From NCBI GenBank assembly GCA_041650035.1, contig JBAZLY010000004.1, positions 1-62,881 of the forward strand: a DNA stretch of 62,881 bases. The letters are read 5' to 3'. A program made the translations under genes and the position numbers. Below are positions 1 through 43,929 of this stretch, one piece after another (within the stretch, counting starts at the first letter, position 1; the number at the start of each line of letters is the position of its first letter). The notes below the pieces were generated by a model, which worked only from the letters and a program-made list of their open reading frames with translations, was not told where the DNA came from and searched no databases. The stretch is from Candidatus Omnitrophota bacterium (GTDB lineage Bacteria > Omnitrophota > Gorgyraeia > JABMRG01).

Positions 1-1
1 T

Positions 2-1249
2 ATATTCAAGGATTATCTTAGCGCCTCAAACGCGGCAGATGTTATACAATCGCTCATGCTTTTGCGTTCATTGCTGCTTGACCTGGTTTCGCAGCACTGC
101 GGCAATGATATTGAAAAGCTTAAGACCTTTAACAGGGTCATTATAGAGGCTATGGGCAATAATATCGTATGCGTTTCCGACATTTATAAAAAGAGGGATT
201 TTACCAGGCTTGAGACCATCATGATGTATGGCAAGAAGATGATCAGAATACATGATATCGACAAACTTTGTGATCTTATACTGAAAGCGGCTGTTATGGA
301 AAGTGGTTCGGACAGGGCGTCTCTTATGCTGGTAGACAAAGATGGTTATATGCGCATCAAAAGCTCTATCGGGATACCTAAAGATATAGCGGCCAAGGCA
401 AGGATCAAGATAGGTTTGGGGATATCCGGCACGGTTGCCAAAACAGGAGAGCCTATTATTATAAGCAAGGGTCATAAGATACCCAAAGGCGTTAAAAGGT
501 ATATGCGCGGGCTAAAATTAAGGTCTTCTTTAAGCGTGCCTATTATGTCGAATGGGTTTTTACAGGGTGTTTTAAATCTGGGTAAATATAAGAGTAGGCA
601 TATCTTTGATAAGGATGATGCGGGACTTCTCGTTATACTTGCTCATGAGGCAGGCACGGCAATAAGCAATTGCAGGCTTTTTCAAGAGTTGCATGAATTA
701 TATGAAGGCAGTATATTTTCGCTCGCGGCCGCTATTGAGGCAAGGGATAATTATACCCATGGACATTCAAGCAGGGTTACCAATATCGCCGTTGAAATAG
801 GCAAGGCATTAAGTTTGCCGGAGGATACGCTTAAAAGGATCCGGCTTGCGAGTATGCTCCATGATATCGGGAAGATCGGAATTCCCGATAATGTATTGCT
901 TAAGCCTTCCAGGCTTACTGACCAGGAGTTTGATATCATCAAAAAACACCCTGTTTACGCGGTAAACATCCTTAAGCACCTGCCGAGATTAAAGGATGTA
1001 GTCCCTATAGTATACCATGAGCATGAACGTTTTGACGGTAACGGCTACGTCTCACGCCTTAAGGGAGAGGCTATTCCTGTGGAATCAAGGGTCATCGCCG
1101 TCGCGGATGCCTTTGAGGCCATGACATCAAACAGGCCCTACAGGAAATCTATGTTCAGACAAAAAGCTATTGATGAGATACGGCGCAATGCCGGGACCCA
1201 GTTTGACCCTGTTGTTGTCCGGGTTTTTTTGAAGATAATGAAGAAATAG
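2..1249 (+). CDS. GAF domain / HD-GYP domain c-di-GMP phosphodiesterase (possibly 5' truncated by window edge)
   Basis: The frame is open from position 2, with the first ATG at 56. The N-terminal half is GAF-like. The C-terminal half carries HD-GYP hallmarks: HGHSSRV, HDIGKIGIP, YHEHERFDGNGY. Confidence 0.8.
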   Translation: MFKDYLSASNAADVIQSLMLLRSLLLDLVSQHCGNDIEKLKTFNRVIIEAMGNNIVCVSDIYKKRDFTRLETIMMYGKKMIRIHDIDKLCDLILKAAVMESGSDRASLMLVDKDGYMRIKSSIGIPKDIAAKARIKIGLGISGTVAKTGEPIIISKGHKIPKGVKRYMRGLKLRSSLSVPIMSNGFLQGVLNLGKYKSRHIFDKDDAGLLVILAHEAGTAISNCRLFQELHELYEGSIFSLAAAIEARDNYTHGHSSRVTNIAVEIGKALSLPEDTLKRIRLASMLHDIGKIGIPDNVLLKPSRLTDQEFDIIKKHPVYAVNILKHLPRLKDVVPIVYHEHERFDGNGYVSRLKGEAIPVESRVIAVADAFEAMTSNRPYRKSMFRQKAIDEIRRNAGTQFDPVVVRVFLKIMKK

Positions 1250-1302
1250 AATTTACTTTATTAGGCGTTCCGCGCACGCTTTGGGCCGGATATAAGGTTT
1301 TT

Positions 1303-1707
1303 ATGGATATAGAACGGATACAGCCAACATTACTTTTTTCTATCCTATGCGACGACATAAGGCGCGAGGATAACGGCAAGTTCATGCTTATTGGGCTTTT
1401 TGAGACCATAGCTTCAAGTGTCTTCCCCGTGCTGCACCCCAAACTTTTTGTTATGAACTGCTGGTGCAGCGGAACGGGAAGGTTCAGGCAAAGAACGAGG
1501 TTGATAAGACCTGATAATACTAGGCTCATAGAAGACGAGGGGACGGAATTCGGCCTGGCCGACTTAAGGTCTAAACACCGCGTGGTCGCGCAGTTCAATA
1601 ATATATGTTTTGATCAGCCGGGGGAATATGCCGTTGAGGTATTATTGGACACAGAGCTAAAGGTCAGGTATCCTTTGGTTATTGAAAGGCCTTTGCGAAA
1701 AGGATAG
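1303..1707 (+). CDS. small hypothetical protein (possibly DUF6941-like beta-sandwich)
   Basis: 134-aa ORF with an ATG start, tightly spaced between the HD-GYP and PilZ genes. Family resemblance is from memory only. Confidence 0.5.
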   Translation: MDIERIQPTLLFSILCDDIRREDNGKFMLIGLFETIASSVFPVLHPKLFVMNCWCSGTGRFRQRTRLIRPDNTRLIEDEGTEFGLADLRSKHRVVAQFNNICFDQPGEYAVEVLLDTELKVRYPLVIERPLRKG

Positions 1708-1737
1708 GCGCGTAGTGACCTTTGAAATGGAAAGTCT

Positions 1738-2283
1738 ATGAAGAAAAAAGAGAGGCGGTATTCAAAAAGGCTGGCAGTCCATATAAATATCAAGGTGTTC
1801 AGGCTCGATAAAAAGACTATGCGCACTGTCAGGGCCTATCTTCTTGACGCAAGAGATATGACCAAGGAAGGGGTTTTTCTGCGCGGCAATGCCGCGTTTC
1901 CACTTGATACCAGGCTTCGCCTGGAATTCAACCTCCCGGGTGGCGATACGCCTGTTGTCGCCGATGCCAGGGTGGCCTGGCAGGCCAAACCATCTCATCC
2001 GGGATATTATCCGGGCATGGGCGTATCTATTACAAGGATCAGAAGAGGTGACGGAAAGAGACTGCGGGATTTTCTACGGCTGCGTCTGCGTAACTACAGG
2101 CATGCCGTTAAGCTTAAGAATATGTATATGCAGCTTAAAGATATGGGGGCCAGGTTATATGAGTTGGAGCGGTCTCATATGCAGGCGGAACACTTCAGAA
2201 AGGTCATTGAGCGCGCTATTATTGAAATTGACAGTATTGCTCATCTTATCGACAAAGAGGTGTGGGAGGTAAAGAGCTTATAG
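1738..2283 (+). CDS. PilZ domain protein with C-terminal coiled-coil
   Basis: RxxxR motif (RYSKR) near the N-terminus and a D-x-T-x-x-G variant (DMTKEG) about 30 aa later. The C-terminus is helical and heptad-like. Confidence 0.75.
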   Translation: MKKKERRYSKRLAVHINIKVFRLDKKTMRTVRAYLLDARDMTKEGVFLRGNAAFPLDTRLRLEFNLPGGDTPVVADARVAWQAKPSHPGYYPGMGVSITRIRRGDGKRLRDFLRLRLRNYRHAVKLKNMYMQLKDMGARLYELERSHMQAEHFRKVIERAIIEIDSIAHLIDKEVWEVKSL

Positions 2284-2286
2284 GCC

Positions 2287-2820
2287 ATGGGTGATATTAA
2301 ACCTGTCTGCCCCGTAAAGTTGATTACGGGTATCCTGTATTCGTCTGAAGCATCGTCATGTGCTGCCGAAAAACAACTTGTAAGATTTTTTGGCAGGATT
2401 GACTATAAGAGCGAGCCTATGGCCTTTAATTTTACAAATTATTACGCCGGTGAGATGGGTCCGGTTTTGCACAGGATTTTTTTAAGCTTCAAAAGACTTA
2501 TGCAGCCCGGACAGCTTGCGGGTGTAAAGGTAATCACAAACAGGCTGGAGAGGCGGCTTGCGAAAAAGTCCCCTATATTAAAGCGGGTTGTGAATATAGA
2601 CCCCGGGTATGTAACTGACGCCAAACTTGTGCTTGCCTCAACGAAGGATTATGGCCATCGTATATATCTTTCGGCAGGCATATATGCCGAGATCACGCTT
2701 TGTTATCAAAAGAATTCCTTCCGCCCGCATAGCTGGACGTATCCTGATTATGCCGCCGCAGAATATGTAAATATATTTAACTGTATACGTGATATGTTTA
2801 TGGAACAGAGGTTGGGTTGA
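2287..2820 (+). CDS. DUF4416 family protein
   Basis: Motifs typical of DUF4416 as I recall it: PVKLITGILY, FNFTNYYAGEMG, VNIDPGYV, KLVLASTKDYGHRIYL, GIYAEITL. Confidence 0.6.
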   Translation: MGDIKPVCPVKLITGILYSSEASSCAAEKQLVRFFGRIDYKSEPMAFNFTNYYAGEMGPVLHRIFLSFKRLMQPGQLAGVKVITNRLERRLAKKSPILKRVVNIDPGYVTDAKLVLASTKDYGHRIYLSAGIYAEITLCYQKNSFRPHSWTYPDYAAAEYVNIFNCIRDMFMEQRLG

Positions 2821-2825
2821 GTTTT

Positions 2826-3599
2826 ATGGACGCAGGCGGGAACAATGTTTATTATCATGTACCTGTTCACAGGCTTATACATGATATAGCGTCTTATTTG
2901 GATCTTGGCGTTAACTTTGAGATCTATATAAATTCGGATTTTATCGATGATCACAGACATGGTTGTATCGAGATGATAAATCGGGAATTTAGGAAAATGA
3001 AGGCCGGCAAAAGGATACACGGACCTTTCCTTGACCTTGCCCCCGCAAGCCCGGATGCCCGTATCAGGGATATATCGAAACAGCGCATGCTTTCCGGTAT
3101 ACGGTTATGCAGGGCGCTGGAATGCGACAATATCGTATTACACAGTCATTATGACCCTGTTTACCACAAAAGGCATAAGCCGGACTGGCAGAGGTATGCG
3201 GATATGGTCTGGGCCGATGTGGAGGCCTTAAGCAAGGAACTTGGTATCACCGTGAATATCGAGAATTCGGAGGATGATAACCCGCAAGCTATATTTTATC
3301 TTCTGGACAAATACCCGTCTTTTAAGGCCTGTTTCGACATTGCCCATTATACCGTGTTTGGTTTAGCGCACTGGAAGGATATCTTTGACCTATATCCTAA
3401 AGGTTCAGTGAACGAGATACATATATCGGACAACGACACAACCGAGGACCAGCACCTTGTCCTGGGCCAAGGGTTTGTAGATATCAAAGGTCTATTAAGG
3501 GGATTGCTTCTTGCCGGCAATAAAGCCGCCATTACTGTTGAACCTCATTCAAAGACGGATATGATAAAAGATGTGGAATATATGAGAAATTTTTCTTGA
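2826..3599 (+). CDS. sugar phosphate isomerase/epimerase family (xylose isomerase-like TIM barrel) protein
   Basis: About 258-aa ORF. The pattern of conserved H/D/E residues (VLHSHYD, NIENSEDD, CFDIAHY, IHISDND) is typical of the AP endonuclease 2 / TIM-barrel fold. The ATG at 2826 is preferred over the TTG at 2817. Confidence 0.65.
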   Translation: MDAGGNNVYYHVPVHRLIHDIASYLDLGVNFEIYINSDFIDDHRHGCIEMINREFRKMKAGKRIHGPFLDLAPASPDARIRDISKQRMLSGIRLCRALECDNIVLHSHYDPVYHKRHKPDWQRYADMVWADVEALSKELGITVNIENSEDDNPQAIFYLLDKYPSFKACFDIAHYTVFGLAHWKDIFDLYPKGSVNEIHISDNDTTEDQHLVLGQGFVDIKGLLRGLLLAGNKAAITVEPHSKTDMIKDVEYMRNFS

Positions 3600-3624
3600 C
3601 AATATTTTTTTGTATTGCTAAACT
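3596..3624 (+). promoter_or_regulatory. sigma70-like promoter (TTGACA-17 nt-TAAACT)
   Basis: TTGACA at 3596-3601 and TAAACT at 3619-3624, 42 nt upstream of the strong RBS and ATG of the 3666 gene. Confidence 0.45.
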
Positions 3625-3665
3625 ATAAAAAAGCATAAAAGATATTCATAAAAGGAGGAAGGCAG

Positions 3666-4019
3666 ATGTCAAAAGGTGTTAAGGTTGGGGTGATTTGCGT
3701 TTTGGTATTGTGTGTTGCCGCGATAGCTTTGCCTGTCTTTGCGCAGGAAGGCAGCGTGATTGAGAAAATGGGCAAGAAGCTTGGCAGGGGTATAGTCAAC
3801 ATCGCGACAGGCTGGGTAGAATTACCGAAAAATATATACGATATAAGCGTTGAAAAAAATAATCCGCTCATGGGTATTACTTACGGAACATTAAAAGGCC
3901 TGGGCATGACTGTGGTCAGGACCGGCGCAGGCGCGTATGATACTGTGACGTTCTTATTCCCTGTCCCGCAGGATTACCAGCCGATACTGCAGCCTGAATT
4001 TGTGTTTGAGGAGAAATAA
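3666..4019 (+). CDS. small secreted protein resembling exosortase system-associated TIGR04073 family
   Basis: Strong RBS (AAAGGAGGAAGG) and a signal peptide ending VFAQE. Contains KLGRGIVNIATGWVELPKNIY ... RTGAGAYDTVTFLFPVP, the pattern I associate with TIGR04073. Confidence 0.65.
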   Translation: MSKGVKVGVICVLVLCVAAIALPVFAQEGSVIEKMGKKLGRGIVNIATGWVELPKNIYDISVEKNNPLMGITYGTLKGLGMTVVRTGAGAYDTVTFLFPVPQDYQPILQPEFVFEEK

Positions 4020-4051
4020 TACCATAACAGCGATATCCGTTGAAAATGGCT

Positions 4052-4106
4052 AAAACGAGGCAATAAAAACAAACCGAACTGGAGTTTATTGCTTCGTTTT
4101 ATTTTA
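4052..4106 (+). terminator. intrinsic terminator hairpin
   Basis: A 16-bp stem pairs 4052-4067 (AAAACGAGGCAATAAA) with 4085-4100 (TTTATTGCTTCGTTTT), with one G-U pair and a 17-nt loop, followed by ATTTT. Confidence 0.6.
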
Positions 4107-4120
4107 GAAGGCAGCATATT

Positions 4121-4537
4121 ATGGGTATATCCGGTAAAGGCAGGGAGCGCAGGTCCAACAATCGTAAGACAGGTTCGGATGAGAAGAGGAATTATATAAG
4201 GGCAGATGTCTCTGTCCCGATGATAATTTATGTGCAGAGAAAGACCGGTCCTGAACGGGTACCTGCCAAGGCCTGGAACATCAGCGCAAGCGGTATGATG
4301 ATACAGTCTCTTGGCCGTTTTAATACAGGTATAAAGGTTGATATTGAAATGACCCCGCCCGTTAGCCCTAATCCGGTGCATTGCAAGGGAAAGATCGTGT
4401 GGGCATCGGAAAACATATCCGGCAGAGGCGGTTATAATTACGGTGTGGAATTGATTTCGATTGAAGAGGATAACAAGAACACATTTCTGAAGTTTTTGTG
4501 CGATTTGATATACAGTAATTCCGAAGGCAATGATTAG
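4121..4537 (+). CDS. PilZ domain protein
   Basis: Canonical RxxxR (RNYIR) and NxSxxG (NISASG) motifs at the expected spacing. Confidence 0.8.
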   Translation: MGISGKGRERRSNNRKTGSDEKRNYIRADVSVPMIIYVQRKTGPERVPAKAWNISASGMMIQSLGRFNTGIKVDIEMTPPVSPNPVHCKGKIVWASENISGRGGYNYGVELISIEEDNKNTFLKFLCDLIYSNSEGND

Positions 4538-4584
4538 TCATTGATATTTTTGTAGAGTTTGGAATTTAAAAAGGAGGTGGCAAA

Positions 4585-4965
4585 GTGTCAAGAAAATGTT
4601 TTAGTGTAATTGCGGCAGTGGTTTTGATTGCCGCGTGTTTTGTATCCTGCGGGTATGCACAGGCAGGCGATGAATGCCAGGCTGCAGGCCAGGAAAATAA
4701 GGTGGTAAAGTTTTTTAAAGGCGTATTTAAGTGGCCTTTTAGCGTTACAAAACAGGGAGCCGAAACAGTCGGTCGTACGACAAAATCCGCGGTTGACACC
4801 GTTGCAAATACAGGCGTTAGTGCTGTTGAGACAGTAACAGGCAAGCCTGAAAAGATAAAGGATGTTGTTGCTGCCCCTGTCAAGGGCGCCGCGGAGACAG
4901 GATATACAGCTACTGAAGGAAGTCTTAAGACACCCATAGAGGGGACAAAAGAGGCGTTTGAATAG
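4585..4965 (+). CDS. small secreted protein, T/V/E/G-rich
   Basis: GTG start 6 nt after AAAGGAGGTGG. Signal peptide ends GYAQAG. The mature part is low-complexity and compositionally similar to the 3666 and 6873 products. Confidence 0.55.
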   Translation: MSRKCFSVIAAVVLIAACFVSCGYAQAGDECQAAGQENKVVKFFKGVFKWPFSVTKQGAETVGRTTKSAVDTVANTGVSAVETVTGKPEKIKDVVAAPVKGAAETGYTATEGSLKTPIEGTKEAFE

Positions 4966-5026
4966 AAAAAGGTTGGTGTGATTTTTTAAGATACATATAA
5001 AAATCATGCCAGCCTTTTTTGTTTTT
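4966..5026 (+). terminator. long imperfect hairpin / intrinsic terminator
   Basis: 4966-4976 pairs with 5009-5019 and 4979-4986 pairs with 4999-5006, giving about 19 bp with a 2x2 internal loop, followed by T-rich sequence. The hairpin swallows the ATG at 5006, which argues for the 5045 start of the next gene. Confidence 0.55.
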
Positions 5027-5044
5027 CATATTTGGCGGCATTAT

Positions 5045-5782
5045 ATGAAAATAAAGATAAATTATATAAAAAATATAGCGGTCTTAGCCATTGATGGCAG
5101 GATAAATATAAATTCGTCAAAGCTTATAGAAAGTGTCGGATCCCTGCTTGAAAAGGGCGTATCCAGGCTTATTATGGATATGCGAAAGGTGGACTTTGTT
5201 GATTATAACGGGCTGTCAGTGATGGCTATTACTTATAAGAATGTCTTGAATAATAACAGCGCTATGAAATTATGCGGGATTGCCCCGCACATACAGGAAC
5301 TCTTTAAGGTTGTAAAGCTTGATGATGTCTTTGAGATATGTAATGATATTAACAGCGCTATATTCAGTTTTGAGAGCGTCTCAGGCAATGTCCGTGTAAA
5401 GAAGGCGAACGCCCAACCTTTAAGGAGGAGGTTTTCGAGGCTTGATATGGACATTCCAGTCACATACAGGCTCATGTCGCGGGGCAAACGTTGTCTATCC
5501 GGCGAGATATTGACCGGCAGGATAGAGAATATCAGCGGTGCCGGCTTATTCGTGCGCTCTATAAGCCTGTTGCCTCCGGGCAGCGATGTAGTGGTTGGTG
5601 TAAAGTTTAAGAGCGTGCAGGAACCCAGATATTTTAACGGTACGGTGATGTGGCTTGCGGATAAAAATCTCCAACCTTTGCTGTTTCCGGGCATGGGGAT
5701 TGCATTTACGGATATGCCATACCGCGCACGAGAGGATATATTACAGTTTATAGAGAAAAACGCTATCCGTCGAAAGGGTTAA
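5045..5782 (+). CDS. STAS (anti-sigma antagonist-like) domain fused to a C-terminal PilZ domain
   Basis: The N-terminus is SpoIIAA-like (VDFVDYNGLSVM in place of the DSSGL phosphosite). The C-terminus has RxxxR (RRFSR) and NxSxxG (NISGAG). Confidence 0.8.
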   Translation: MKIKINYIKNIAVLAIDGRININSSKLIESVGSLLEKGVSRLIMDMRKVDFVDYNGLSVMAITYKNVLNNNSAMKLCGIAPHIQELFKVVKLDDVFEICNDINSAIFSFESVSGNVRVKKANAQPLRRRFSRLDMDIPVTYRLMSRGKRCLSGEILTGRIENISGAGLFVRSISLLPPGSDVVVGVKFKSVQEPRYFNGTVMWLADKNLQPLLFPGMGIAFTDMPYRAREDILQFIEKNAIRRKG

Positions 5783-5940
5783 ATGGCTGGTAAAAACATT
5801 GAGTCAGTTTTTTTAACCGGATGTTTTTTGGTTTTTTATAAAATGATATAATTGTAAAATTACACATTTAAACTATTGACTTTTTTCATTATACAAGGCA
5901 TATTTATTACGGAACAGGACATAGCTCTTTTATAGAGAAT

Positions 5941-6040
5941 ACGATAAAGGCAAACTGTCCGAAAGGATGGGGCGCAAAGCCGCGAGCCTAAAACCTCATA
6001 AGAGATACAGAGGTTATGGCAGTCGGGTTGCCGATATTAT
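5941..6040 (+). promoter_or_regulatory. cyclic-di-GMP-I riboswitch (GEMM-I, Rfam RF01051-like)
   Basis: AAGGCAAACUGUCCGAAAGGAUGGGGCGCAAAGCCGCGAGCCUAAAACC...GGCAGUCGGGUUGCCGAU matches the conserved class I aptamer core. It has a GGCAA/UUGCC closing helix, a GAAA tetraloop hairpin, the ACGCAAAGCC junction and a second hairpin. Confidence 0.85.
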
Positions 6041-6055
6041 GCATTTGGTAACATG

Positions 6056-6116
6056 ACCCTAAGGCTTCAATACGCGCTTTTTGCCATATTGATAGTTTTA
6101 GGGTTTTTTATTTTTC
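6056..6116 (+). terminator. candidate riboswitch expression-platform terminator
   Basis: ACCCTAA (6056-6062) pairs with TTAGGGT (6098-6104), followed by TTTTTTATTTTT. The loop is large (about 35 nt), so the structure is uncertain. Confidence 0.4.
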
Positions 6117-6131
6117 ATAAACGAGGTGGAT

Positions 6132-6431
6132 ATGAAGAAACAGGATAGCGGGACAGAAAGGACTGGAAGGGTTGTAGCATTCCTTACAAGGTCGGAGATC
6201 GATTATATAGACAGCCTTGCTAAGGATGCCTTGTTTTCTACCGGCCGCAAGCTGTCAAGGACCGACATCATACGCGCTGTTATTGATTGTATAAAATCAA
6301 ACAGGGTTAACGGCAAGGGCATCTCCTCCAGGCAGGGTCTGGAAAAGAGGTTGTATTGTCTTACGCAGACAGCATTGCCTAATGTTGTCTCGGAGATCGT
6401 TAAAATAAGAGGTCACAATGATAATAGTTAA
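6132..6431 (+). CDS. hypothetical protein, ribbon-helix-helix-like (putative small DNA-binding protein)
   Basis: First ORF after the riboswitch, with SD GAGG 5 nt before the ATG at 6132. RVVAFLTRSEIDYIDSLAKD...SRTDIIRAVIDCI fits a strand-helix-helix pattern. Confidence 0.5.
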   Translation: MKKQDSGTERTGRVVAFLTRSEIDYIDSLAKDALFSTGRKLSRTDIIRAVIDCIKSNRVNGKGISSRQGLEKRLYCLTQTALPNVVSEIVKIRGHNDNS

Positions 6432-6723
6432 ATTAATGATGGTCATATTGCTTCTTATGCCTTTTGTATTTGTCGTAACGACTGCGGCATTGTCTTCAGA
6501 TGCGGTGGTCTATTGTCTGAATGGAAACAAGATCCTGCAGTATTATGACGTAAATGGCATTGCCGATTATTTAAAAAAAGTCAGCGGGAATATTGTTCAC
6601 CTGGAAATAGATACCATGCGAGACCTATTTATGCGGGTGAAGAGTGAGAAACAGGTTCTGAACAGTATCCTTAACCGCAAAGGCGATTTTAGCACAGCTA
6701 TACCGAGGAGACGGCATGCATAA
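6418..6723 (+). CDS. small secreted/membrane-anchored hypothetical protein
   Basis: Overlaps the upstream gene by 14 nt. SD is AGAGG. Hydrophobic N-terminal signal or anchor (VILLLMPFVFVVTTAALS). Confidence 0.5.
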   Translation: MIIVKLMMVILLLMPFVFVVTTAALSSDAVVYCLNGNKILQYYDVNGIADYLKKVSGNIVHLEIDTMRDLFMRVKSEKQVLNSILNRKGDFSTAIPRRRHA

Positions 6724-6872
6724 GCGGTTTGAGCTCAAATCCAATATGAAATGCCCGATCATAATAAGATGGCGGACCAAGGATGCTGATTTCATGCAGA
6801 TAGAGATATCCCCTGTCCGTATATTGAGGATCAAGGTAGATAGATTGCCGCAAACATAAAAAGGAGGTTTAT

Positions 6873-7220
6873 ATGAGAAGAGAAAGAGGGATAAAACGTC
6901 ATCAGAGGTGTATAAGGCGGAAGGCGGGGGTAAAGCGGTTTATAAGGATTTTTTCTCCTTTTGTGTTGATAATGCTCCTGGCACTTCCTGGCCTAGCCCA
7001 ACAGGATCCCGGCGAAAAACTTGTTCAGGGTGTCGAGGATACCCTGACCGGATGGACGGATCTTCCGCAGGAAATAGTTGAGACGGCTCAAGAGACAAAT
7101 GCGGTTGAGGGGGTAACCACGGGTGTTATAAAAGGCGCCGGGGAGGCGGTTATCCAAACGGTGGAAGGGGTTGTGGAAACGGCAACCTTTTATAGCGCCG
7201 AAAGCGGTAATAAGGAGTAA
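6873..7220 (+). CDS. small exported protein, distant TIGR04073-like
   Basis: Strong RBS (AAAAGGAGG). A very basic n-region precedes the hydrophobic core. TGWTDLPQEIVET...GVIKGAGEAVIQTVEGVVETATF parallels the GW-x-E-L-P ... TF pattern of the 3666 product. Confidence 0.55.
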   Translation: MRRERGIKRHQRCIRRKAGVKRFIRIFSPFVLIMLLALPGLAQQDPGEKLVQGVEDTLTGWTDLPQEIVETAQETNAVEGVTTGVIKGAGEAVIQTVEGVVETATFYSAESGNKE

Positions 7221-7241
7221 TATAAGATCATCAAATTACCT

Positions 7242-7267
7242 GGGAGAGGCTTGAAAATACCTCTCCC
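7242..7267 (+). promoter_or_regulatory. GC-rich hairpin between the small secreted gene and the ECF sigma gene
   Basis: Perfect 8-bp stem, GGGAGAGG (7242-7249) with CCTCTCCC (7260-7267), and a 10-nt loop. No U-tract follows. Confidence 0.35.
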
Positions 7268-7284
7268 GGATGGGGGGCGCGCAA

Positions 7285-7821
7285 ATGTCATTTGACCGCA
7301 GACACAGATTGTTCCAGCTATTGTATAGACGCTATATAGATAAGGTGCGTTCGCGTGTCGGGCGTATCCTTTACAATGATATGTATGCCGTTGACGATAT
7401 CGTCCAGGAGGCGTTTATGCGCGCTTATATGAACATGGAGAAGATATATCAAAAGGATGTTTTTTTAAGGTGGTTATTTACGGTATCACGTAATCTTTGC
7501 CTGAATTATAAGAGGGGGAGCAGCAGGATAGCAGATAGCAATGCCTTTTGCCGGGGATACGCTGAAAGCCGTATCGGTATGATAGCTGACAGCAATTGCC
7601 AGGCACCGGATATGATTGCCGAAAAAAATGAGCTGATATGCATGTTCAGAGAATGTATGGAAAAATTAACACCCAAATACAAAATAGCTGTCCAGCTTTG
7701 CGGTATAGAAGGTCTTTCATATAGCGCCGCCGCCGCGCGGTTAAATACGAGTGCCAATGTTATTGCCCATGATCTTATGAGGGCAAAGAGATTATTATCC
7801 TCTAAGATAGCCATTAAGTGA
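7285..7821 (+). CDS. RNA polymerase sigma factor, ECF (sigma-70 group 4) family
   Basis: Region 2 (DIVQEAFMRAY, WLFTVSRNLCLNYKR) and a region 4 HTH (GLSYSAAAARLNTSANVIAHDLMRAK). The ATG at 7285 is preferred over 7270. Confidence 0.85.
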   Translation: MSFDRRHRLFQLLYRRYIDKVRSRVGRILYNDMYAVDDIVQEAFMRAYMNMEKIYQKDVFLRWLFTVSRNLCLNYKRGSSRIADSNAFCRGYAESRIGMIADSNCQAPDMIAEKNELICMFRECMEKLTPKYKIAVQLCGIEGLSYSAAAARLNTSANVIAHDLMRAKRLLSSKIAIK

Positions 7822-8036
7822 TTTCTACGCATTGCCTCATTATAATAACGCTAAACCTTTCTTGCATTAATCTGCGCGGATTTTATTTTTGAGTGGGAAA
7901 AACAAGACAGTTTTTTCGATCATTGTTATAATGAGTTTCTGCTATTGATAGATTACCGCGCTTATCTGCATGATCTGCACAAGACACCATTACGAGGTGT
8001 TTTCGCTTGACAATTCTTTTAAAAAGTGCTAATTTA

Positions 8037-8725
8037 ATGATGATGCGGTTTAGGTATTTAACCTTGCTTACCTTAATCATCATTCTTGACCCGTCAATCT
8101 GTCTTAGCGCCCCCTGCTATGGGACAAAGATGCCTGCAAGAGGTGAGTTCTTTTCAGGTATAGAGGTTTTTCATATCGAGAGGGATCTCGAAAAAGATCA
8201 GGGTAAGGTCAAAAGCGCCCAACATTTTTTGCTCATCTCATATGGATTATGTGATTGGTTTAGTATCGATCTAAAGGCAGGTGCCGGAGACATAAACAGG
8301 TATAGTGCCCCTTGCAATAATATTGATTACAAGGCGAGATTTGACGGGGGATATGGGTTTAGGGTACTTTTTTTGACAGCAACGATATCAGGCTTGCCGC
8401 GGGGTTTCAGCATATCAGCGTTCACCCTATTACGGTGAGACTTGATAATCAGAAGTATGAGGCCGTTCTTGACGATTGGCAGGCATCGCTGTTGTTGTCA
8501 TACAATTGCTTCTTTATAACCCCATACGCCGGCGCGCGCCTTTCAAGGACAGATTATATAAACTGGATTGATAGCGATCGCAAACGCCATATGTCAGATG
8601 GCGAAAAAGCCATTGGCCTTATATACGGTGTTGACATTATGATCACGGATGAGATGTGGCTTAACGCGAAGGCCGGTTTTTTCGACGCGCAGACTATTGC
8701 GGTAAGCCTTATGACTAAATTTTAG
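8037..8725 (+). pseudogene. outer-membrane beta-barrel protein gene interrupted by a frameshift in a T7 tract
   Basis: ORFs 8007-8438 and 8435-8725 join into one barrel-like protein if one T is removed from T7 at 8368-8374 (…GYGFRVLFFDSNDIRLAAGFQHISVHPITVRLDNQ…). It has a signal peptide and a C-terminal Phe. Confidence 0.55.
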
Positions 8726-8754
8726 TAATCGTTCAAATATAGGGAGGATGGCAT

Positions 8755-9549
8755 ATGAGAAAGCCCTTTATTGCGCTTATTGTCATAGTGGTTTTGGCAA
8801 TCGGTTCGTTGTTAGGCAAGGATATCGTGGCCAAGGTTGCGGTCGAGAGGGTATTCGCGCTGGTTACAGGCCTTCAGCTTAGGATGAGCAGTCTTAATGT
8901 TGGTGTGGCGAAATCGGCGGTCGCTATCAACGGATTAACATTGTATAACCCCAGGATTTTTGAAGAGAGAATAATGCTGGATATGCCGGATATGTACGTG
9001 CATTATAATCTCCCGGCCATATTCAAGGGGAAGGTCTATATGTATGATATGAAACTGGACCTTAAGGAATTTATTATTGTAAAAAATAAGAATGGCAAGC
9101 TTAATCTTGATTCACTTAAGTCTGTGAAGGCGCAAAGGGCAGGCGGTAAAGCGCAGGACGCAGACAGGGCCCGGCCTATAGATATGAGGATAGACAATCT
9201 TGAGCTAAGGATTGGTAAGGTGATATATAAGGACTATTCAGCCGGGGCCAAGCCGTATATTAGGGAATTCAACATTAACGTTAACGAGAAGTACACGGAT
9301 ATTAAAGACCCCTACGCGCTTGTAAGCCTTATTGTCGCAAAGGCTCTTATGAATACTACCATAGCGAGTCTTGCGAACTTTGATCTTAACGGACTTTCGG
9401 GTAGATTATCGGGCGTGGCGTCAAAGGCGGGTAGGCTTGCCACGGAGACAGCCGGTAAGGCGACGAAGATTGCCGGTCAGACAGGCAAGGCCGTTTCCGA
9501 TGTCGCGGGGAAATTTATTAATATGCCTTTTGGAGACTTCAAGGAATAG
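8755..9549 (+). CDS. membrane-anchored hypothetical protein (weakly AsmA/DUF748-like)
   Basis: Good RBS (GGGAGGA), an N-terminal TM anchor and a periplasmic body with a K/A/G-rich tail. The family call is tentative. Confidence 0.45.
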   Translation: MRKPFIALIVIVVLAIGSLLGKDIVAKVAVERVFALVTGLQLRMSSLNVGVAKSAVAINGLTLYNPRIFEERIMLDMPDMYVHYNLPAIFKGKVYMYDMKLDLKEFIIVKNKNGKLNLDSLKSVKAQRAGGKAQDADRARPIDMRIDNLELRIGKVIYKDYSAGAKPYIREFNINVNEKYTDIKDPYALVSLIVAKALMNTTIASLANFDLNGLSGRLSGVASKAGRLATETAGKATKIAGQTGKAVSDVAGKFINMPFGDFKE

Positions 9550-9647
9550 CCGCAGTTTTTTTAAAGGATCCGGCATGCCTGTCCGCTTTTTTTATCAATG
9601 TTCTTTTGTATATGATTCTATTTTTATAACTTAAAGGAGGAAAAGGC

Positions 9648-12170
9648 ATGAAAAGGCATATAAGTCTGTTGTTTATGTCAATATGTTTGGTTTGTTTCTG
9701 CGTTGTCCAGGCCTATGCCAAGGACATACCATGGCATCATTCAAAGGCCAAGTATTTTTATGTATTCGGTCCCGATGGCGACCCGTTACTAGGCGCAGAT
9801 GATAACGAATTAACGTTGTATATTGATGTCCCTTCCGACGAAAAGTCGGATGTTGTTATAGAGGTATTTGACCCAGATACAGGTAGTCATCACGACTTCA
9901 GGACAGACCCTTCTAATGAATGGGACACCGTGACGGAATTCTCTGTTTTTGGAAATGACCTTATCGATAAAAAGGAGTTTGGCAGCCGCGGCTATGACAA
10001 GGCATACTATAAGTTTGGTCCATACAGCGCGGACAAAGGCAGGGCGGTATCAAACGCGTATCGTTTTAAAGTCGTGGCCAAGGCTATTAAAGGTAATGAC
10101 GCCAATCTTTTCAGGTTTAGGGTATCGCCTGACAGCGCCAGGTCATATAGCGACAATATTACAATCAGGCTTTTGCCAGATCAGGGAGATAGGATGTATT
10201 TTTATCCCGAAATATCTTCCGGCACTAAATATATTATAATTGAAAACTATGATTTGGACGCTAATGGCGGCACAAGCGAGATCTTTGCCGGTCACGATAT
10301 GCTGTTCGGGGAATCAAGGACAAGGCACGCTGTCGGGGATTCGGCAAGCGGCGAATGGAGAAAGACCCAGATATCGGTCAATGCTATAACCGGCGGCAGG
10401 CTCAAATACATTATAACCAAAGGCACGCAAAAATACGCACATGCCGGTTTAAAGGTGTATGATGACAAGGGGGGGCTATTGCCTCTGTATTTTGAGCAGG
10501 ATAAGGCCCCTGTACCTATATTAGAGGGCAAGCAGGCTATTGCCCCTGCGGCTGCTCCTGTTAAGGCGGTTATCAACCAGGCAAAGGATTTGGGATGCAA
10601 TAAGTTTACCTTTGATGCCACTGATTCATACGATATTACTAATAGAGGTCTGTCTTTTGAATGGGATTTTGGTGACGGCAATACAAGCAAGGAGCAGGTT
10701 GTTACGCATGTGTATGAAAAAGGCGGAATCTATACGGTGCGCCTTACGGCGAAGGATGATTCGGGTTTAGGCTGTGATACGGCAACAACGACACAGACAG
10801 TCCGGGTCAATACGCCGCCAAAAGCGGATTTTGTCTCGCCCGAGACCGTCTGCTTCTCCGATGACATATATTTTGACGCTGGCAATACCATTGATGATAC
10901 CTCAAGCAATTTATCCTATAGCTGGGATTTTGGAGACGGTTCAAAGGCTGAAGGTGTTAAGGTGCGCAAAAGATACGATAAGGGCGGTATATATAAGGTC
11001 AACCTCCTGGTTGATGATAATGAGGACTCTTCCTGCAGTACCGATAGCATTACTCGTTCTATACGGATAAATACGCCGCCTGTGGCTGTTGCGGGATCCG
11101 ATATAGATATATGCCTTGAAGACCTTAAGGCTGAATACAGGGTGGCCCTTGACGGCTCGGCTTCGTATGACCTGGATAAAGACAAGCTTTCATATCTATG
11201 GGACCTCGGTGACGGTACACAAAAAACAGGGGCTAAAGTTGCCCATGTGTATCAAAAACCCGGACGTTATGATGTCACGCTTACTGTTGACGACGGCAGC
11301 TCTTCCGCCTGCGGCACGGCCAAAGACGTATTAACGGTTATGTTGAACAAGGCGCCTATCGCGTCAATAAAGACACAGGATTCAAAGATATGCGTAGGAG
11401 ACGAGGTTATATTTGACGGATCGGGTTCTGTTACGGAAGACGGTGAAGGCCTGAAATACGCATGGGATTTTGGCGATGGCTCAAAGGCTGAAGGCGTTAA
11501 GGTCACTCACGTTTATAAAAAAGGCGGAAAATATTTTTCGCGTCTTACTGTTGATGACGCAAGGGGCACGCGGTGTTCGCAGGCGCTGGCAACAGCTGTT
11601 GCCGATGTGAATGCAGCGCCTATTGCCAGAATCAGCGCGCCATCGGTTGTCTGTATTGGCAAAACGGTTACCTTTGACGCGTCCGCGTCAGGCGACCCCG
11701 ATGGAGATGCCATACGCTATTATTGGAGTTTTGACAATGAGGCGCCAAAACAGGCAAGCTCAAGGGCGGTCTATACATTTGCATCAGGCGGTGTTCATAC
11801 GGTACGCCTAATAGTTGATGACGGTAGAGGTTATGAGTGTTCCAAGGCATCCGCCGCAGTCAATATACGGGTAAATACCCCGCCTGTGGCTGATCCCGGT
11901 ATCAATCTTGCCTGCTGTGTCGACGAAAAGACCTATTTTGACGGGTCGTCTTCGACCGATGCCGACGGCGACAGATTGTCATATAGCTGGGATTTTGGCG
12001 ACGGAGAAAAGGCCGATGGCGCTAATCTATATCATGTATATAAAAAACCGGGAAGATATAATGTAGTTCTTACGGTTGATGATAATTCAGGCACCGAGTG
12101 CAGCAAGAGCGTTTCATCGTTTACGGCGAGCGTGAACGCCCCACCGGTTCCTATTATAAAAATCAGGTAA
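9648..12170 (+). CDS. large secreted protein: novel ~300-aa N-terminal region plus six tandem PKD domains
   Basis: Strong RBS and a signal peptide (VQAYAKD). The W-D-F-G-D-G motif or a variant recurs every 87-92 aa (nt ~10661, 10921, 11198, 11461, 11722, 11987). Confidence 0.85.
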   Translation: MKRHISLLFMSICLVCFCVVQAYAKDIPWHHSKAKYFYVFGPDGDPLLGADDNELTLYIDVPSDEKSDVVIEVFDPDTGSHHDFRTDPSNEWDTVTEFSVFGNDLIDKKEFGSRGYDKAYYKFGPYSADKGRAVSNAYRFKVVAKAIKGNDANLFRFRVSPDSARSYSDNITIRLLPDQGDRMYFYPEISSGTKYIIIENYDLDANGGTSEIFAGHDMLFGESRTRHAVGDSASGEWRKTQISVNAITGGRLKYIITKGTQKYAHAGLKVYDDKGGLLPLYFEQDKAPVPILEGKQAIAPAAAPVKAVINQAKDLGCNKFTFDATDSYDITNRGLSFEWDFGDGNTSKEQVVTHVYEKGGIYTVRLTAKDDSGLGCDTATTTQTVRVNTPPKADFVSPETVCFSDDIYFDAGNTIDDTSSNLSYSWDFGDGSKAEGVKVRKRYDKGGIYKVNLLVDDNEDSSCSTDSITRSIRINTPPVAVAGSDIDICLEDLKAEYRVALDGSASYDLDKDKLSYLWDLGDGTQKTGAKVAHVYQKPGRYDVTLTVDDGSSSACGTAKDVLTVMLNKAPIASIKTQDSKICVGDEVIFDGSGSVTEDGEGLKYAWDFGDGSKAEGVKVTHVYKKGGKYFSRLTVDDARGTRCSQALATAVADVNAAPIARISAPSVVCIGKTVTFDASASGDPDGDAIRYYWSFDNEAPKQASSRAVYTFASGGVHTVRLIVDDGRGYECSKASAAVNIRVNTPPVADPGINLACCVDEKTYFDGSSSTDADGDRLSYSWDFGDGEKADGANLYHVYKKPGRYNVVLTVDDNSGTECSKSVSSFTASVNAPPVPIIKIR
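10590..12150 (+). repeat. intragenic tandem repeats encoding PKD domains
   Basis: Near-identical DNA blocks, for example 10921-10967 versus 11461-11507 (GGGATTTTGG.GA.GG.TCAAAGGCTGAAGG.GTTAAGGT). Period is about 265 nt. Confidence 0.7.
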
Positions 12171-12173
12171 CCG

Positions 12174-12959
12174 ATGAAGGTTGTTTTGCGTATCGCGCTT
12201 ATTTGCACCAGCTTAACGATATCCCGTATGTGCGATGGTTCTGAACTTAAGCCTGTCTCCAGGGAATGGGATTTCGGCAAGGTCCAGCAAGGTTCATCGA
12301 AACAAATGGTGTTTTTCGTACGGAACACGGGTCTTGATGAACTTGTAATTAATAATGTGCATTCATGCTGTGGATATAGCGTTGACAATGTATCTAAATG
12401 GACGCTGGCGCCGGGAGAAAAGGCGGAGATAGCGCTTACGTGTGACGCCTCTAAAAAGACGCTGGGAAGGGATAAAAGATATATAACCCTTCTTTCAAAC
12501 AGCAAGGTAAATCCTCACGAGCTTATCCCCATTAAGGCTGATATATCTGCGGCTCCTGAAGGGTTTTTGCCAAAGAAGAGGCCTGCGGCGCGGGATAAGC
12601 CTTCCGTTCAAAACGAAGAGAGCACTTCCTCAATAAGCGCGCATGATCTATATGCGCGCATATCCGCGGGCAGGGACATCATGATCCTGGATATAAGGCA
12701 GAGTGAAGAGTGTTCAGAAAAGTATATTTCAAATTCAATAAGGCTACCCGCCGCAAGCATATTAAACGATGAAGCGTATCTGCGGGATATGTTAAGGAAT
12801 ATTGAAAAAACGACTTTGATTGCCGTTCTTGATTGGGATGGGTCCGGTTCGACGCCAATAACCTCTAAGCTGAAAGGCCTTGGTTATAACGCGCTTAATG
12901 TGGAAGGCGGGATATCTTCGTGGGAGAGAAACGGTTATCCGATTACTTATAATAATTGA
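12174..12959 (+). CDS. DUF1573 domain / rhodanese-homology domain fusion protein
   Basis: N-terminus: WDFGKVQQGSSKQMVFFVRNTG...INNVHSCCGY (DUF1573-like). C-terminus: rhodanese-like (ILDIRQSEE..., GGISSWERNGYPI) with Asp where the catalytic Cys is expected (IAVLDWDGSGS). Confidence 0.7.
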   Translation: MKVVLRIALICTSLTISRMCDGSELKPVSREWDFGKVQQGSSKQMVFFVRNTGLDELVINNVHSCCGYSVDNVSKWTLAPGEKAEIALTCDASKKTLGRDKRYITLLSNSKVNPHELIPIKADISAAPEGFLPKKRPAARDKPSVQNEESTSSISAHDLYARISAGRDIMILDIRQSEECSEKYISNSIRLPAASILNDEAYLRDMLRNIEKTTLIAVLDWDGSGSTPITSKLKGLGYNALNVEGGISSWERNGYPITYNN

Positions 12960-13044: not shown

Positions 13045-13599
13045 TTAGCGCAGTAGAAGTGATTTGGCGGTCTTATCAGCGGTTAACTGGCCGCAGAGGG
13101 CGTTCACGAGCGTCAAGGCGAATTTTAATGCTGCGGCAGGGCCTTTGCCGGTAATAGTGTTTTTATCGATTACCACGTCATTATCCACATATTTTGTTGT
13201 CTTGGAAAACGCGCTTTCCATGCCGGGATAACATGTGGCGGATTTGTTATCCAATATTCCTAATGGGGCAAGAACAACTGCGGGTGATGAGCATATTGCC
13301 GCGATAAGGCCACTGTCGGTTTTTGCCTGTGTTAGCAGCATGCCCCTTATTCTTTTATCCGCGAAAAGGTTTGCGGCGCCGGGCATACCGCCAGGCAGAG
13401 CGCAGGCATCGTATATACCGGTCACATTTTTAAGAATGATGTCTGCGAAAACATTAATACCTCTCGAGCCCTTTACCCTTAAGGAATCGATGCCGCAGGC
13501 ATCAACGCCAACACCCGACCTTCTTAGCACGTCAATTATGGTTATGGCCTCAATCTCCTCAAAGCCTTCGGCAAGCAGGACTATGGCCTTTTTTTGCAT
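13045..13599 (-). CDS. DJ-1/PfpI (ThiJ/YajL-like) family protein
   Basis: FEEIEAITIIDVLRR, LPGGMPGA, and the nucleophile-elbow Cys in AAICSSP. Good RBS. Confidence 0.85.
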   Translation of the reverse strand: MQKKAIVLLAEGFEEIEAITIIDVLRRSGVGVDACGIDSLRVKGSRGINVFADIILKNVTGIYDACALPGGMPGAANLFADKRIRGMLLTQAKTDSGLIAAICSSPAVVLAPLGILDNKSATCYPGMESAFSKTTKYVDNDVVIDKNTITGKGPAAALKFALTLVNALCGQLTADKTAKSLLLR

Positions 13600-37787: not shown

Positions 37788-37976
37788 ATGAAAGCTGAAA
37801 AATATTATTCGGTTAATGAGGTCGCCAGGCTTTTAAGTATCTCAAAACAGACATTGGTGCGCTATGAATCAAAAGGTATATTCCCAAGCGCCAGGCGTAA
37901 TAAAGTTAACGGGTGGCGTGAATATACAGTAAATGAGATTAACCACTTGCGCAAAATAATAGGCAGGACTTCCTAA
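37788..37976 (+). CDS. MerR-family HTH protein, DNA-binding domain only (62 aa)
   Basis: YSVNEVARLLSISKQTLVRYESKGIFPSARR..NGWREYT..EINHLRKI matches the MerR N-terminal winged HTH. No effector or dimerisation domain is present. Confidence 0.75.
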   Translation: MKAEKYYSVNEVARLLSISKQTLVRYESKGIFPSARRNKVNGWREYTVNEINHLRKIIGRTS

Positions 37977-39565: not shown

Positions 39566-39567
39566 GC

Positions 39568-40134
39568 ATGCAGATAAGGTTTAATATAGATCCTAAAAAG
39601 AAGTCGATATTGATATCGCTTGTCATCCTGTCCCTTGCCTTCTTCGCGTGCTTGAACATAGCCGGCGCGCAGACGAGAAAGAGGGAATCTATTAAAAAGA
39701 AGGTCTTGGATCTTTCAAAAAAGATAGTCTTACGGCAGGACATTGAAAAGATAGAAAGGATCAGGCAGGAATATGCGAGGTTTTTTCATGAAGATATAGA
39801 TCGTCAGGTATTAAGGTCGGTTATATTAGCCGTTGCCTCGGAATTAAATGTGGATATAATATCCGCCAAACCGCTTGAAAGAGATGTCTTGGGTGCCGTA
39901 TCAAGAGAGTCTATAGAGCTTTCATTCAGATGCTCCTTTAACGATCTCGGATTATTCATCTCCAGGATCGAGGGTATGCCTGTGATCACTAAAATAGAAT
40001 CGTTATTAATACAAGGGGATTCCGTTAACGAGGGTTCCGGCGCGGCGGCCGCGGGTCTTAAGGGAAAGATCTATGAATCGGATTATGATGTATCTGCTAC
40101 CATGGTGGTCGCGGGGTATTCGATAAACGGTTGA
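39568..40134 (+). CDS. PilO/GspM-like pilus assembly protein
   Basis: Short cytoplasmic tail, one TM segment, a coiled coil, then an alpha/beta domain. Its position after the PilMN gene supports the call. Confidence 0.5.
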   Translation: MQIRFNIDPKKKSILISLVILSLAFFACLNIAGAQTRKRESIKKKVLDLSKKIVLRQDIEKIERIRQEYARFFHEDIDRQVLRSVILAVASELNVDIISAKPLERDVLGAVSRESIELSFRCSFNDLGLFISRIEGMPVITKIESLLIQGDSVNEGSGAAAAGLKGKIYESDYDVSATMVVAGYSING

Positions 40135-40136
40135 TT

Positions 40137-40598: not shown

Positions 40599-40610
40599 GG
40601 AGATACTAAC

Positions 40611-42110: not shown

Positions 42111-42111
42111 T

Positions 42112-43818: not shown

Positions 43819-43929
43819 TGCGCGTCGTCAGGTTGTCGACAATCATAGACGGATACAAAAGCGTGTTGAGGCTTGGCGGTCGGCAGCCTGCCAAGGCCGT
43901 GACCCGTTTTTTAGCGCGTGGGAGACAGA

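Follow-up and report, generated by a model that had tools for sequence, protein, structure and literature searches.

Signalling by cyclic diguanylate (c-di-GMP) is well studied in Proteobacteria, whereas its outputs are poorly known in uncultivated phyla. The Omnitrophota have small cells that may depend on a host or live as predators, and the biology of the cell surface is central to how they live; remodelling of the envelope or surface is the usual theme of c-di-GMP signalling. PilZ domains that carry the RxxxR and [DN]x[ST]xxG motifs are established receptors of this ligand. The subject of the present analysis is the beginning of a 62,881-nucleotide stretch of DNA from a Candidatus Omnitrophota bacterium (contig JBAZLY010000004.1; the whole stretch is called the window), in which a GAF-HD-GYP gene, three PilZ genes and a c-di-GMP riboswitch follow one another. 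A first-pass annotation made from the sequence alone regarded positions 2-5782 as a dense signalling island and a dedicated local module. The profile scans and comparisons reported here point to a modified view, according to which the first ~9.5 kb are probably a conserved chromosomal c-di-GMP output neighbourhood of an Omnitrophota clade, neither a mobile island nor a complete circuit.

All parts of the locus belong to known families, and a high density of c-di-GMP genes is in itself nothing new. The GAF-HD-GYP protein shares with PmGH from Persephonella marina (PDB 4mcw; PMC4159591) the two-part GAF-like/HD-GYP build, the HD dyad and most of the metal ligands, but it has Tyr in place of E185, as in the Y/F subfamily, Glu in place of H276 and GYV in place of GYP. 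The three PilZ proteins are similar to described c-di-GMP receptors (PF07238; TIGR02266 subtype) in that all of them score above the Pfam threshold and have retained the two binding motifs; they differ in the addition of a helical tail, of a STAS fusion and of the fixed neighbours DUF4416 and TIGR04073. Small pilZ genes in conserved loci of the same phylum have been reported downstream of giant genes (West-Roberts et al., 10.1101/2023.11.21.568195). That preprint does not describe the present block, which contains no giant gene and in which the pilZ genes are accompanied by DUF4416, TIGR04073, the STAS fusion and the riboswitch. The N-terminal STAS domain of the fusion protein is shared with the partner-switching proteins SpoIIAA, RsbV, TM1442 and Pseudomonas aeruginosa HsbA, the last of which links to the cyclase HsbD (PMC5085249). 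Unlike these, the window protein has Tyr instead of Ser, a PilZ domain at its C-terminus and no kinase or PP2C gene nearby, and its input would be a ligand and not phosphorylation. Finally, the riboswitch resembles the GEMM-I riboswitches Vc2 and Cd1 (RF01051) in its full-length aptamer, invariant core and intrinsic terminator, but it precedes an unnamed family of 99-aa proteins (orf99), apparently tied to GEMM-I in Omnitrophota.

Conservation of the receptor block in Omnitrophota

Domains were assigned by Pfam and NCBIfam profile scans and RNA elements by Rfam covariance models (Table 1). Related contigs and loci (L001-L118) were collected by look-ups of DUF4416 homologues and by searching the GTDB species genomes with an alignment of STAS-PilZ proteins; L014 lies on the same contig as L009. 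The order of the block recurs in about 10 independent Omnitrophota contigs (L007-L010, L013, L015-L019), with proteins roughly 40-88% identical, and chance juxtaposition is thereby ruled out. The shared order is DUF6941, PilZ1, DUF4416, (TIM barrel), T04073a, PilZ2, sec126, STAS-PilZ, riboswitch, orf99, further genes, T04073b and the ECF sigma factor, where T04073a and T04073b denote small proteins of the TIGR04073 family and sec126 a small secreted protein without a family. Identity to the window proteins is 49-79% for PilZ1, 39-61% for PilZ2, 46-63% for STAS-PilZ, 63-86% for DUF6941 and 46-62% for sec126, which keeps its place between PilZ2 and STAS-PilZ even in the distant L034. Where homologues of DUF4416, STAS-PilZ and orf99 carry an organism name, it is nearly always Candidatus Omnitrophota.

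More distant Omnitrophota carry parts of the block in other surroundings. In L034 the order outer-membrane protein (OMP)/ACT/T04073a/PilZ2/M23/sec126/STAS-PilZ stands amid entirely different genes. L032 has PilZ-PilZ-DUF4416, then a T04073-like gene with PilZ2, then sec126-like-M23-STAS-PilZ-HD_5, and L033 has riboswitch-orf99-T04073, followed by REC-GGDEF, STAS-PilZ and PilZ. In L012 a PilZ gene overlaps DUF4416, with YajQ and HAMP-HD_5 genes also present, and in L011, which is without PilZ1, DUF6941 still adjoins DUF4416 and is followed by HAMP-GAF-GGDEF and two MshEN proteins. At least three sub-blocks therefore persist separately, namely PilZ-DUF4416, TIGR04073-PilZ-secreted protein-STAS/PilZ, and riboswitch-orf99. 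Since they are kept amid unrelated flanks, their clustering has been selected and is not due to chance. We conclude that selection has kept three sub-blocks, which together make up the locus and happen to be contiguous in this clade. The proposed local module thus stands insofar as the clustering is selected and joins protein and RNA receptors of one ligand; it is not self-contained, as the sub-blocks are separable and a cyclase is lacking. In agreement with the first-pass annotation, neither GGDEF nor EAL domains were found by Pfam in the 62.9-kb window (almost all long + strand open reading frames (ORFs) through 60584 and two - strand genes), nor was a GGDEF motif found by a regular-expression scan of the window.

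The placing of the HD-GYP gene next to the receptors holds for the window itself. In several relatives (L008-L011), however, a divergent AAA_22 gene pair is inserted between HD-GYP and DUF6941, and no HD-GYP gene lies within ~7-10 kb upstream of the block in L010 and L019. The inserted pair, absent from the window, consists of an AAA_22/AAA_16 ATPase and a 170-220-aa protein and follows the HD-GYP or a SPOR gene, always on the - strand (L008 5411-6726; L009 5516-6879; L010 5376-6853; L011 6138-7474). L009 and L010 have an FAA hydrolase gene behind the TIM barrel. The term island does not apply in its mobile sense. No tRNA and no integrase were found in the window, the GC content of the first 8 kb (0.42-0.45) is only slightly below that of the rest (0.43-0.49), and core genes flank the block, so it belongs to the core chromosome and lies in conserved core synteny.

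PilZ proteins and their neighbours

The three PilZ domains all exceed the Pfam cut-off, and a motif scan agrees with the motifs read earlier. The RxxxR motif is RYSKR in PilZ1, RNYIR in PilZ2 and RRFSR in PilZ3 (the STAS-PilZ fusion), with arginines invariant in orthologues. The second motif is DMTKEG in PilZ1, with Thr for Ser, NISASG in PilZ2 and NISGAG in PilZ3. On account of these intact motifs all three proteins are regarded as putative c-di-GMP receptors. PilZ1 orthologues have T or S at the Ser position, and R7, R11 and G45 are invariant in six of them; in PilZ2, residues R23, R27, N53, S55 and G58 are invariant, as is the motif IEEDNKNTFLKFLCD at the C-terminus. Pairwise identity among the paralogues is just 20-27%, and each has a separate orthologue group. 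They are therefore old, and a recent tandem duplication was rejected. The description of three stand-alone receptors is correct for PilZ2, the sole minimal stand-alone PilZ. PilZ1 carries a strongly conserved helical tail, and PilZ3 is a fusion. The comparison of sequences thus presents three anciently diverged paralogues which keep the predicted binding motifs and have a different putative output part each (helical tail and DUF4416; bare PilZ; STAS fusion).

Pfam and NCBIfam also agree with the earlier reading that genes for DUF6941, DUF4416, a TIM-barrel protein and small secreted proteins stand between the receptor genes. PilZ1 ends 3 nt before the DUF4416 start. A census of DUF4416 covered 80 metagenomic loci (42-55% identity), 69 of them with enough upstream sequence. 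In 23 of the 69 the DUF4416 gene is preceded by a PilZ ORF whose end lies no more than 400 nt away, and frequently there are two PilZ genes in tandem. The other ORFs found upstream, 45 in number, belong to 43 unrelated clusters, and PilZ is the sole recurrent upstream neighbour. The AlphaFold2 (AF2) model of DUF4416 has a predicted local distance difference test score (pLDDT) of 95.8. A Foldseek search of the PDB with it returned nothing below E 0.001; the best matches, weak resemblances to the ferredoxin folds of HPPK and PII-like proteins with TM below 0.45, did not lead to an assignment. DUF6941 has no sequence relative in the PDB. The TIM-barrel protein has a weak CbiR-like NCBIfam match below the cut-off and the PDB relatives TTHB071 and MJ1311. 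It gave no tblastn match in L018 and L019 and is therefore not a core part of the block.

The STAS domain occupies the N-terminal 110 residues of the fusion protein, with profile matches to TM1442 (E 2.8e-10) and SpoIIAA (E 2e-8). Tyr54 of its DYNG motif aligns with the phospho-Ser of SpoIIAA (DSSG in 1th8; DASG in the Ser-to-Ala variant 1tid), and the phosphorylatable Ser/Thr after the conserved Asp is thus replaced by Tyr. In 18 diverse members D53, Y54, G56, R127, R128, R132, N162 and G167 are invariant, and Asn55 of DYNG is invariant in four close orthologues. Judging from these residues, the STAS domain of PilZ3 cannot be phosphorylated on Ser. No HATPase_c or PP2C/SpoIIE gene was found, either in the window or among the genes listed for related loci. 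An indexed search returned 174 STAS-PilZ clusters at 90% identity, all named ones from Omnitrophota, and an exhaustive hidden Markov model search of 1.84 billion representatives gave ~25-30 full-length clusters at 50% identity. The database names of relatives include 'anti-sigma factor antagonist'.

T04073a, whose N-terminus is signal-peptide-like as read by eye, is the best-conserved protein of the block, with 77-88% identity across block loci and 74% in L034. Identity of 74-88% where neighbours show 40-65% is an unusually strong constraint for a secreted protein of 117 aa. T04073b is kept upstream of the ECF sigma gene in relatives. TIGR04073 is the 'exosortase system-associated' family; no exosortase domain was found in the Pfam scans of the window, and no PEP-CTERM-like motif in its + strand frames.

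The riboswitch and the unit behind it

The c-di-GMP riboswitch that had been reported beside the receptors was recovered as the single RNA found by Rfam across the whole window. The aptamer covers positions 1-87 of the RF01051 model, with a score far above the gathering score of 35, and it stands at the same position in 9 of the 9 loci reaching that far, including L008, L009, L010, L013 and L016-L019. The fold of the terminator region (6020-6115) has an energy of -31.8 kcal/mol (z -4.9). The hairpin with its U-run is present in 9 of 10 leaders, and in an alignment of 8 orthologues its helix has 15 pairs, with compensatory changes at 2 of them. In the minimum free energy structure of the full leader the aptamer hairpins and the terminator form together, and the consensus fold of the leaders comprises aptamer and terminator alone. 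An alternative hairpin, GUUGCCGAU/UUGGUAAC, was rejected as window-specific and not conserved in orthologues. A weak -35/-10 candidate precedes the riboswitch at 5876-5904; promoter and terminator consensus scans of positions 1-9000 gave counts not above shuffled expectation.

The riboswitch heads a separate unit, which comprises orf99, a membrane ORF, the second TIGR04073 protein and the ECF sigma factor; the sigma gene is kept downstream in 7 loci. The orf99 family (99-112 aa) stands directly behind a GEMM-I aptamer in 12 of the 12 cases examined. Besides the window, members are found in L033 (1030-1326), L115 (5001-5339) and L118 (423-722). L115 and L118 are unrelated contexts, in which the aptamer belongs to RF01051 and to the c-di-GMP-I-GGC variant RF03167, respectively. 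Behind the orf99 unit of L115 come genes for HEAT, PKD/C25 and FG-GAP surface proteins. The homologues form 1702 clusters, all 'hypothetical' and none with a Pfam domain, and almost all the named ones are from Omnitrophota. The AF2 model of orf99 is all-helical (pLDDT 72.7). Pfam gave no match for 8 members, and neither a PDB profile search nor Foldseek gave a match. A ribbon-helix-helix regulator, guessed from GRVVAFLTREEIDFIDKL...SRTDIIRA, was not supported. L019 has a second GEMM-I match (13440-13576), which is weaker (45.2 bits); it is found 1.7 kb downstream of the first one and behind two T04073b-like genes.

The GAF-HD-GYP protein

In the near-identical contigs L002 and L003 the GAF-HD-GYP ORF has a length of 492 aa. 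Its best solved relative is PmGH (E 6e-49), aligned over residues 69-412, which include the GAF-like and HD-GYP parts; the second-best for the HD-GYP domain is V-cGAP3 (5z7c, E 2.5e-33), specific for cyclic GMP-AMP (cGAMP). The HD dyad is intact (HDIGK), and the equivalents of PmGH HD, H189, H250, H277 and D305 align. Of the seven metal ligands common to both HD-GYP subfamilies, six align with PmGH and the seventh, H276, is Glu. The HD-GYP motif of the window protein is YHEHERFDGNGYV, and in place of the canonical HHExh(D/N)GxGYP it reads HEHERFDGNGYV, where the first His of HH is Glu and the Pro of GYP is Val. YHEHER is kept in all HD-GYP orthologues examined; the last GYP residue is V, I or P, with GYV and GYI in most.

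The protein is probably a c-di-GMP phosphodiesterase, as predicted from its family. The label of degradative enzyme given earlier is supported by the HD-GYP assignment and the HD dyad, but is weakened by the changes of HHE to EHE and of GYP to GYV. Activity is plausible but not assured because Glu replaces H276, a His whose loss in the H276A mutant abolishes the activity of PmGH (PMC4159591).

A difference between contigs affects the length of this gene. In a comparison over 7 kb the window matched L001, the 155-kb metagenome contig k141_2134582 (ENA), at 100% identity. At ~7676 of L001, 38 nt upstream of window position 1, a run of four A residues stands against five in the 99.97%-identical L002, and the frameshift shortens the 492-aa ORF to a 397-aa ORF starting at window position 56. 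The difference may be a true variant between strains or an assembly error in the homopolymer. A second GAF/HD_5 protein with the canonical HHHERYNGTGYP motif is encoded at 629-2152 of L001, ~5.6 kb upstream of the window start. Its gene adjoins a dGTPase-like HD/HD_assoc gene, and the pair is kept in L002 and L007 and reduced in L012.

Proposed functioning of the locus and alternative explanations

In the proposed mechanism one ligand would be read at several tiers within the locus. Cyclases encoded elsewhere would set the level of c-di-GMP, and the GAF-HD-GYP protein would lower, or at least sense, this pool in response to a GAF-bound signal. At the post-translational tier, binding of c-di-GMP to the three PilZ proteins would alter their interactions with partners, presumed to be the neighbours DUF4416 and DUF6941 or the apparatus by which the TIGR04073 and sec126 envelope proteins are made or exported. 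In STAS-PilZ, c-di-GMP at the PilZ half would change what the STAS half binds, so that a ligand would replace the phosphorylation switch; in this clade the ECF sigma factor is a candidate target. At the transcriptional tier, the riboswitch would gate read-through into orf99 and the ECF sigma gene, and the sigma factor would reprogramme envelope or surface genes. Envelope or surface remodelling is suggested as the likely output by the recurrent neighbours, namely TIGR04073, sec126, OMP-like and DUF748-related proteins, an M23 peptidase, and PKD and FG-GAP proteins behind other orf99 units.

Several observations weigh against such a picture. The Glu at the position of PmGH H276, where H276A kills activity, bears on the enzyme; the PilZ partners are guessed solely from adjacency, and the secreted TIGR04073 and sec126 proteins cannot directly touch cytoplasmic PilZ proteins. 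DUF4416 and orf99 yielded no fold or family clue. In L032-L034 STAS-PilZ stands without a nearby ECF sigma gene, so the pairing of the two is not obligatory. No conserved anti-terminator was found in the aligned leaders, and neither their folds nor their alignment indicated an ON or OFF polarity. Moreover, among close relatives an upstream run of housekeeping genes (tRNA_bind, Peptidase_M50, DHQ synthase, acetyltransferase, 4HBT, SPOR) keeps its synteny about as well as the block does, and part of the conservation of the block is therefore plain core-genome synteny.

This last point leads to a reading in which the c-di-GMP components are real but have stayed together since the stretch is rarely rearranged, with their targets elsewhere and no local unit. 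The housekeeping run conserved at the same loci speaks for it. So does the strand bias, as every gene in positions 1-12959 and nearly all genes of the whole window are on the + strand; the shared orientation of the receptor genes consequently means little. It is also in line with the insertions (AAA_22 pair, FAA hydrolase) and losses (TIM barrel, HD-GYP) tolerated inside the block and with its splitting into sub-blocks in distant lineages. Passive retention does not account for sub-blocks that persist with completely different flanks in L034, L032, L033, L115 and L118, for PilZ as the only recurrent upstream neighbour in the DUF4416 sample, or for the tight PilZ1-DUF4416 spacing, which in L012 becomes an overlap. 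Receptor genes of one ligand are, moreover, over-represented around DUF4416 even in L011 (GGDEF, MshEN) and L012 (YajQ, HAMP-HD_5). Passive retention is therefore considered unlikely, though it deserves some weight. The PilZ proteins could also be c-di-GMP-independent type IV pilus adaptors, like the PilZ proteins of Xanthomonas or Pseudomonas, acting on the pilus ATPase encoded at 42112-43818. Their closest solved structures by profile are the Xanthomonas 'type IV fimbriae assembly protein' PilZ 3dsg and 3cnr, albeit weakly (E 0.002 and 0.095), and a pilus cluster is present in the window (37976-45651). Both binding motifs are, however, kept by all three proteins and invariant across orthologues; the cluster is 32 kb distant, and the 8-10 kb flanks fetched from relatives that carry the block contain no gene for T2SSE, a secretin or a pilin. 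An adaptor function of this kind is highly improbable.

Two further alternatives concern the chemistry of the signal. The GAF-HD-GYP protein may be catalytically impaired and have a role in sensing c-di-GMP or metal, or a scaffolding role, instead of being the degradative enzyme of the locus. EHE replaces HHE in the window protein and in every orthologue examined, GYV or GYI replaces GYP in most, and in addition to the PmGH H276A result, HD-GYP proteins with a degenerate HHE such as HnoD and ECA3548 are inactive regulators (10.1101/2021.11.05.467447). Glu is nevertheless itself a good metal ligand and may still bind metal, the substitution is conserved and not decaying, and the remaining ligand positions listed above align. 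Alanine mutants of the GYP motif in PmGH keep their activity, and a Tyr in place of E185 is usual in the large Y/F subfamily, for which Bellini et al. predict a binuclear centre (PMC4159591). Impairment is a possibility to be taken seriously, although we doubt it, and it is compatible with the output neighbourhood proposed here. The locus might instead signal with another cyclic dinucleotide, such as 3'3'-cGAMP, as the place of V-cGAP3 among the solved relatives of the HD-GYP domain would allow. GEMM-I moreover includes cGAMP-sensing variants, which RF01051 does not separate and which have A at the Vc2 G20 position (PMC6140456). The window aptamer and all aligned orthologues read GGCAAAC, with G in that column by our own alignment. 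This and the established ligand of PilZ domains with these motifs make a different dinucleotide extremely improbable.

The output neighbourhood remains the preferred reading, and what is new in it, on the evidence of the sequences, is the apparently Omnitrophota-restricted STAS-PilZ protein with a predicted non-phosphorylatable STAS domain, the recurrent PilZ-DUF4416 pair and the 99-aa family tied to GEMM-I. In the literature searched, no description was found of the STAS-PilZ fusion, the PilZ-DUF4416 pairing or the GEMM-I-tied orf99 family, and no mention of DUF4416, DUF6941 or TIGR04073. The locus points to lineage-specific wiring of an otherwise ordinary second-messenger system. It supplies three testable receptor-partner hypotheses (STAS-PilZ, PilZ-DUF4416 and riboswitch-orf99) and a functional lead for three families without a known role, DUF4416, DUF6941 and TIGR04073. 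As a tentative extension, which we hold to be possible but not likely, Omnitrophota may have evolved their own set of c-di-GMP effectors with this locus as its core: a ligand-switched STAS-PilZ whose target could be an envelope machine or the ECF sigma factor, a receptor-effector pair of PilZ and DUF4416, and orf99 under essentially exclusive GEMM-I control. If so, each of the three would be a c-di-GMP output mechanism not described before, and a ligand-gated STAS partner switch would be a new type of input for a widespread regulatory device. Should its components turn out to work independently, the locus would be of an ordinary kind, notable for the unusual density of its known domains.

Other features of the window

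Table 1. Position and assignment of the features in the first part of the window.
Feature	Position	Strand	Evidence and remarks
GAF + HD-GYP protein	2..1249	+	Pfam GAF (GAF_2) 60.6 bits, HD_5 152.3 bits, HD 76.1 bits; 5' end cut at window edge
DUF6941 protein, function unknown	1303..1707	+	Pfam 86.5 bits
PilZ1	1738..2283	+	Pfam PilZ (PF07238) 33.4 bits, cut-off 22.5; helical C-terminal extension of ~65 residues
DUF4416 protein	2287..2820	+	Pfam 194.4 bits
Xylose-isomerase-like TIM-barrel protein	2817..3599	+	Pfam AP_endonuc_2 72.6 bits; start TTG 2817 or ATG 2826
T04073a, small secreted TIGR04073 protein	3666..4019	+	NCBIfam TIGR04073 102.1 bits, cut-off 50
PilZ2	4121..4537	+	Pfam PilZ 44.8 bits
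sec126, small secreted protein without family	4585..4965	+	no Pfam or NCBIfam match
STAS-PilZ fusion (PilZ3)	5045..5782 (ORF alternatively from 5006)	+	Pfam STAS 52.7 bits, PilZ 44.8 bits
c-di-GMP-I (GEMM-I) aptamer	5939..6035	+	RF01051 80.2 bits, E 3.5e-14
Intrinsic terminator, 51-nt hairpin + U-run; riboswitch expression platform	6055..6117	+	fold and orthologue alignment
orf99, 99-aa ORF of unnamed family; first gene behind riboswitch	6132..6431	+	homologue search
101-aa ORF, hydrophobic N-terminus	6418..6723	+	no family; 29-32% identity in L008, L009, L013
T04073b, second TIGR04073 protein	6873..7220	+	NCBIfam 54.3 bits, cut-off 50
ECF-type sigma-70 factor	7270..7821	+	Sigma70_r2 44.1 bits, Sigma70_r4_2 40.7 bits, TIGR02937 65.8 bits
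Outer-membrane-protein-like gene, two reading frames	8007..8725	+	tblastn with L008 orthologue
DUF748-related protein, hydrophobic N-terminus	8755..9549	+	Pfam DUF748 39.4 bits, below cut-off 50
840-aa protein with six PKD domains	9648..12170	+	Pfam; downstream of DUF748-related gene

A single 227-aa orthologue from L008 matches the OMP-like gene by tblastn in frame 3 and then in frame 2, with the junction at ~8400-8440. The split is identical in L001, but as L001 is the window's own source contig this is not an independent confirmation. OMP-like homologues adjoin the receptor block in L008, L014, L016 and L034, and a DUF748-related gene follows in L008, L014 and L016. A DUF1573-rhodanese protein is also encoded downstream of the receptor block (Pfam).

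The type IV pilus/T2SS-like (type II secretion system-like) cluster at 37976-47830 comprises, according to Pfam, PilM, a T2SSB-like gene, a secretin, an MshEN+T2SSE ATPase, T2SSF and a pilin; PilM, secretin, ATPase, T2SSF and pilin lie at 37976-45651, and a 690-aa ORF without a Pfam match also belongs to the cluster. The ATPase has two near-complete 24-residue MshEN motifs at its N-terminus and, by these motifs, may be a fourth c-di-GMP receptor in the window. The remaining genes are housekeeping ones, among them SurA-like genes, PdxA, KsgA, GatAB, CysS, MetG, PNPase, FtsK and RecA. The six-PKD protein stands outside the block conserved in relatives, a DUF4126 gene occupying its place in L008, and it fits the surface-protein theme.

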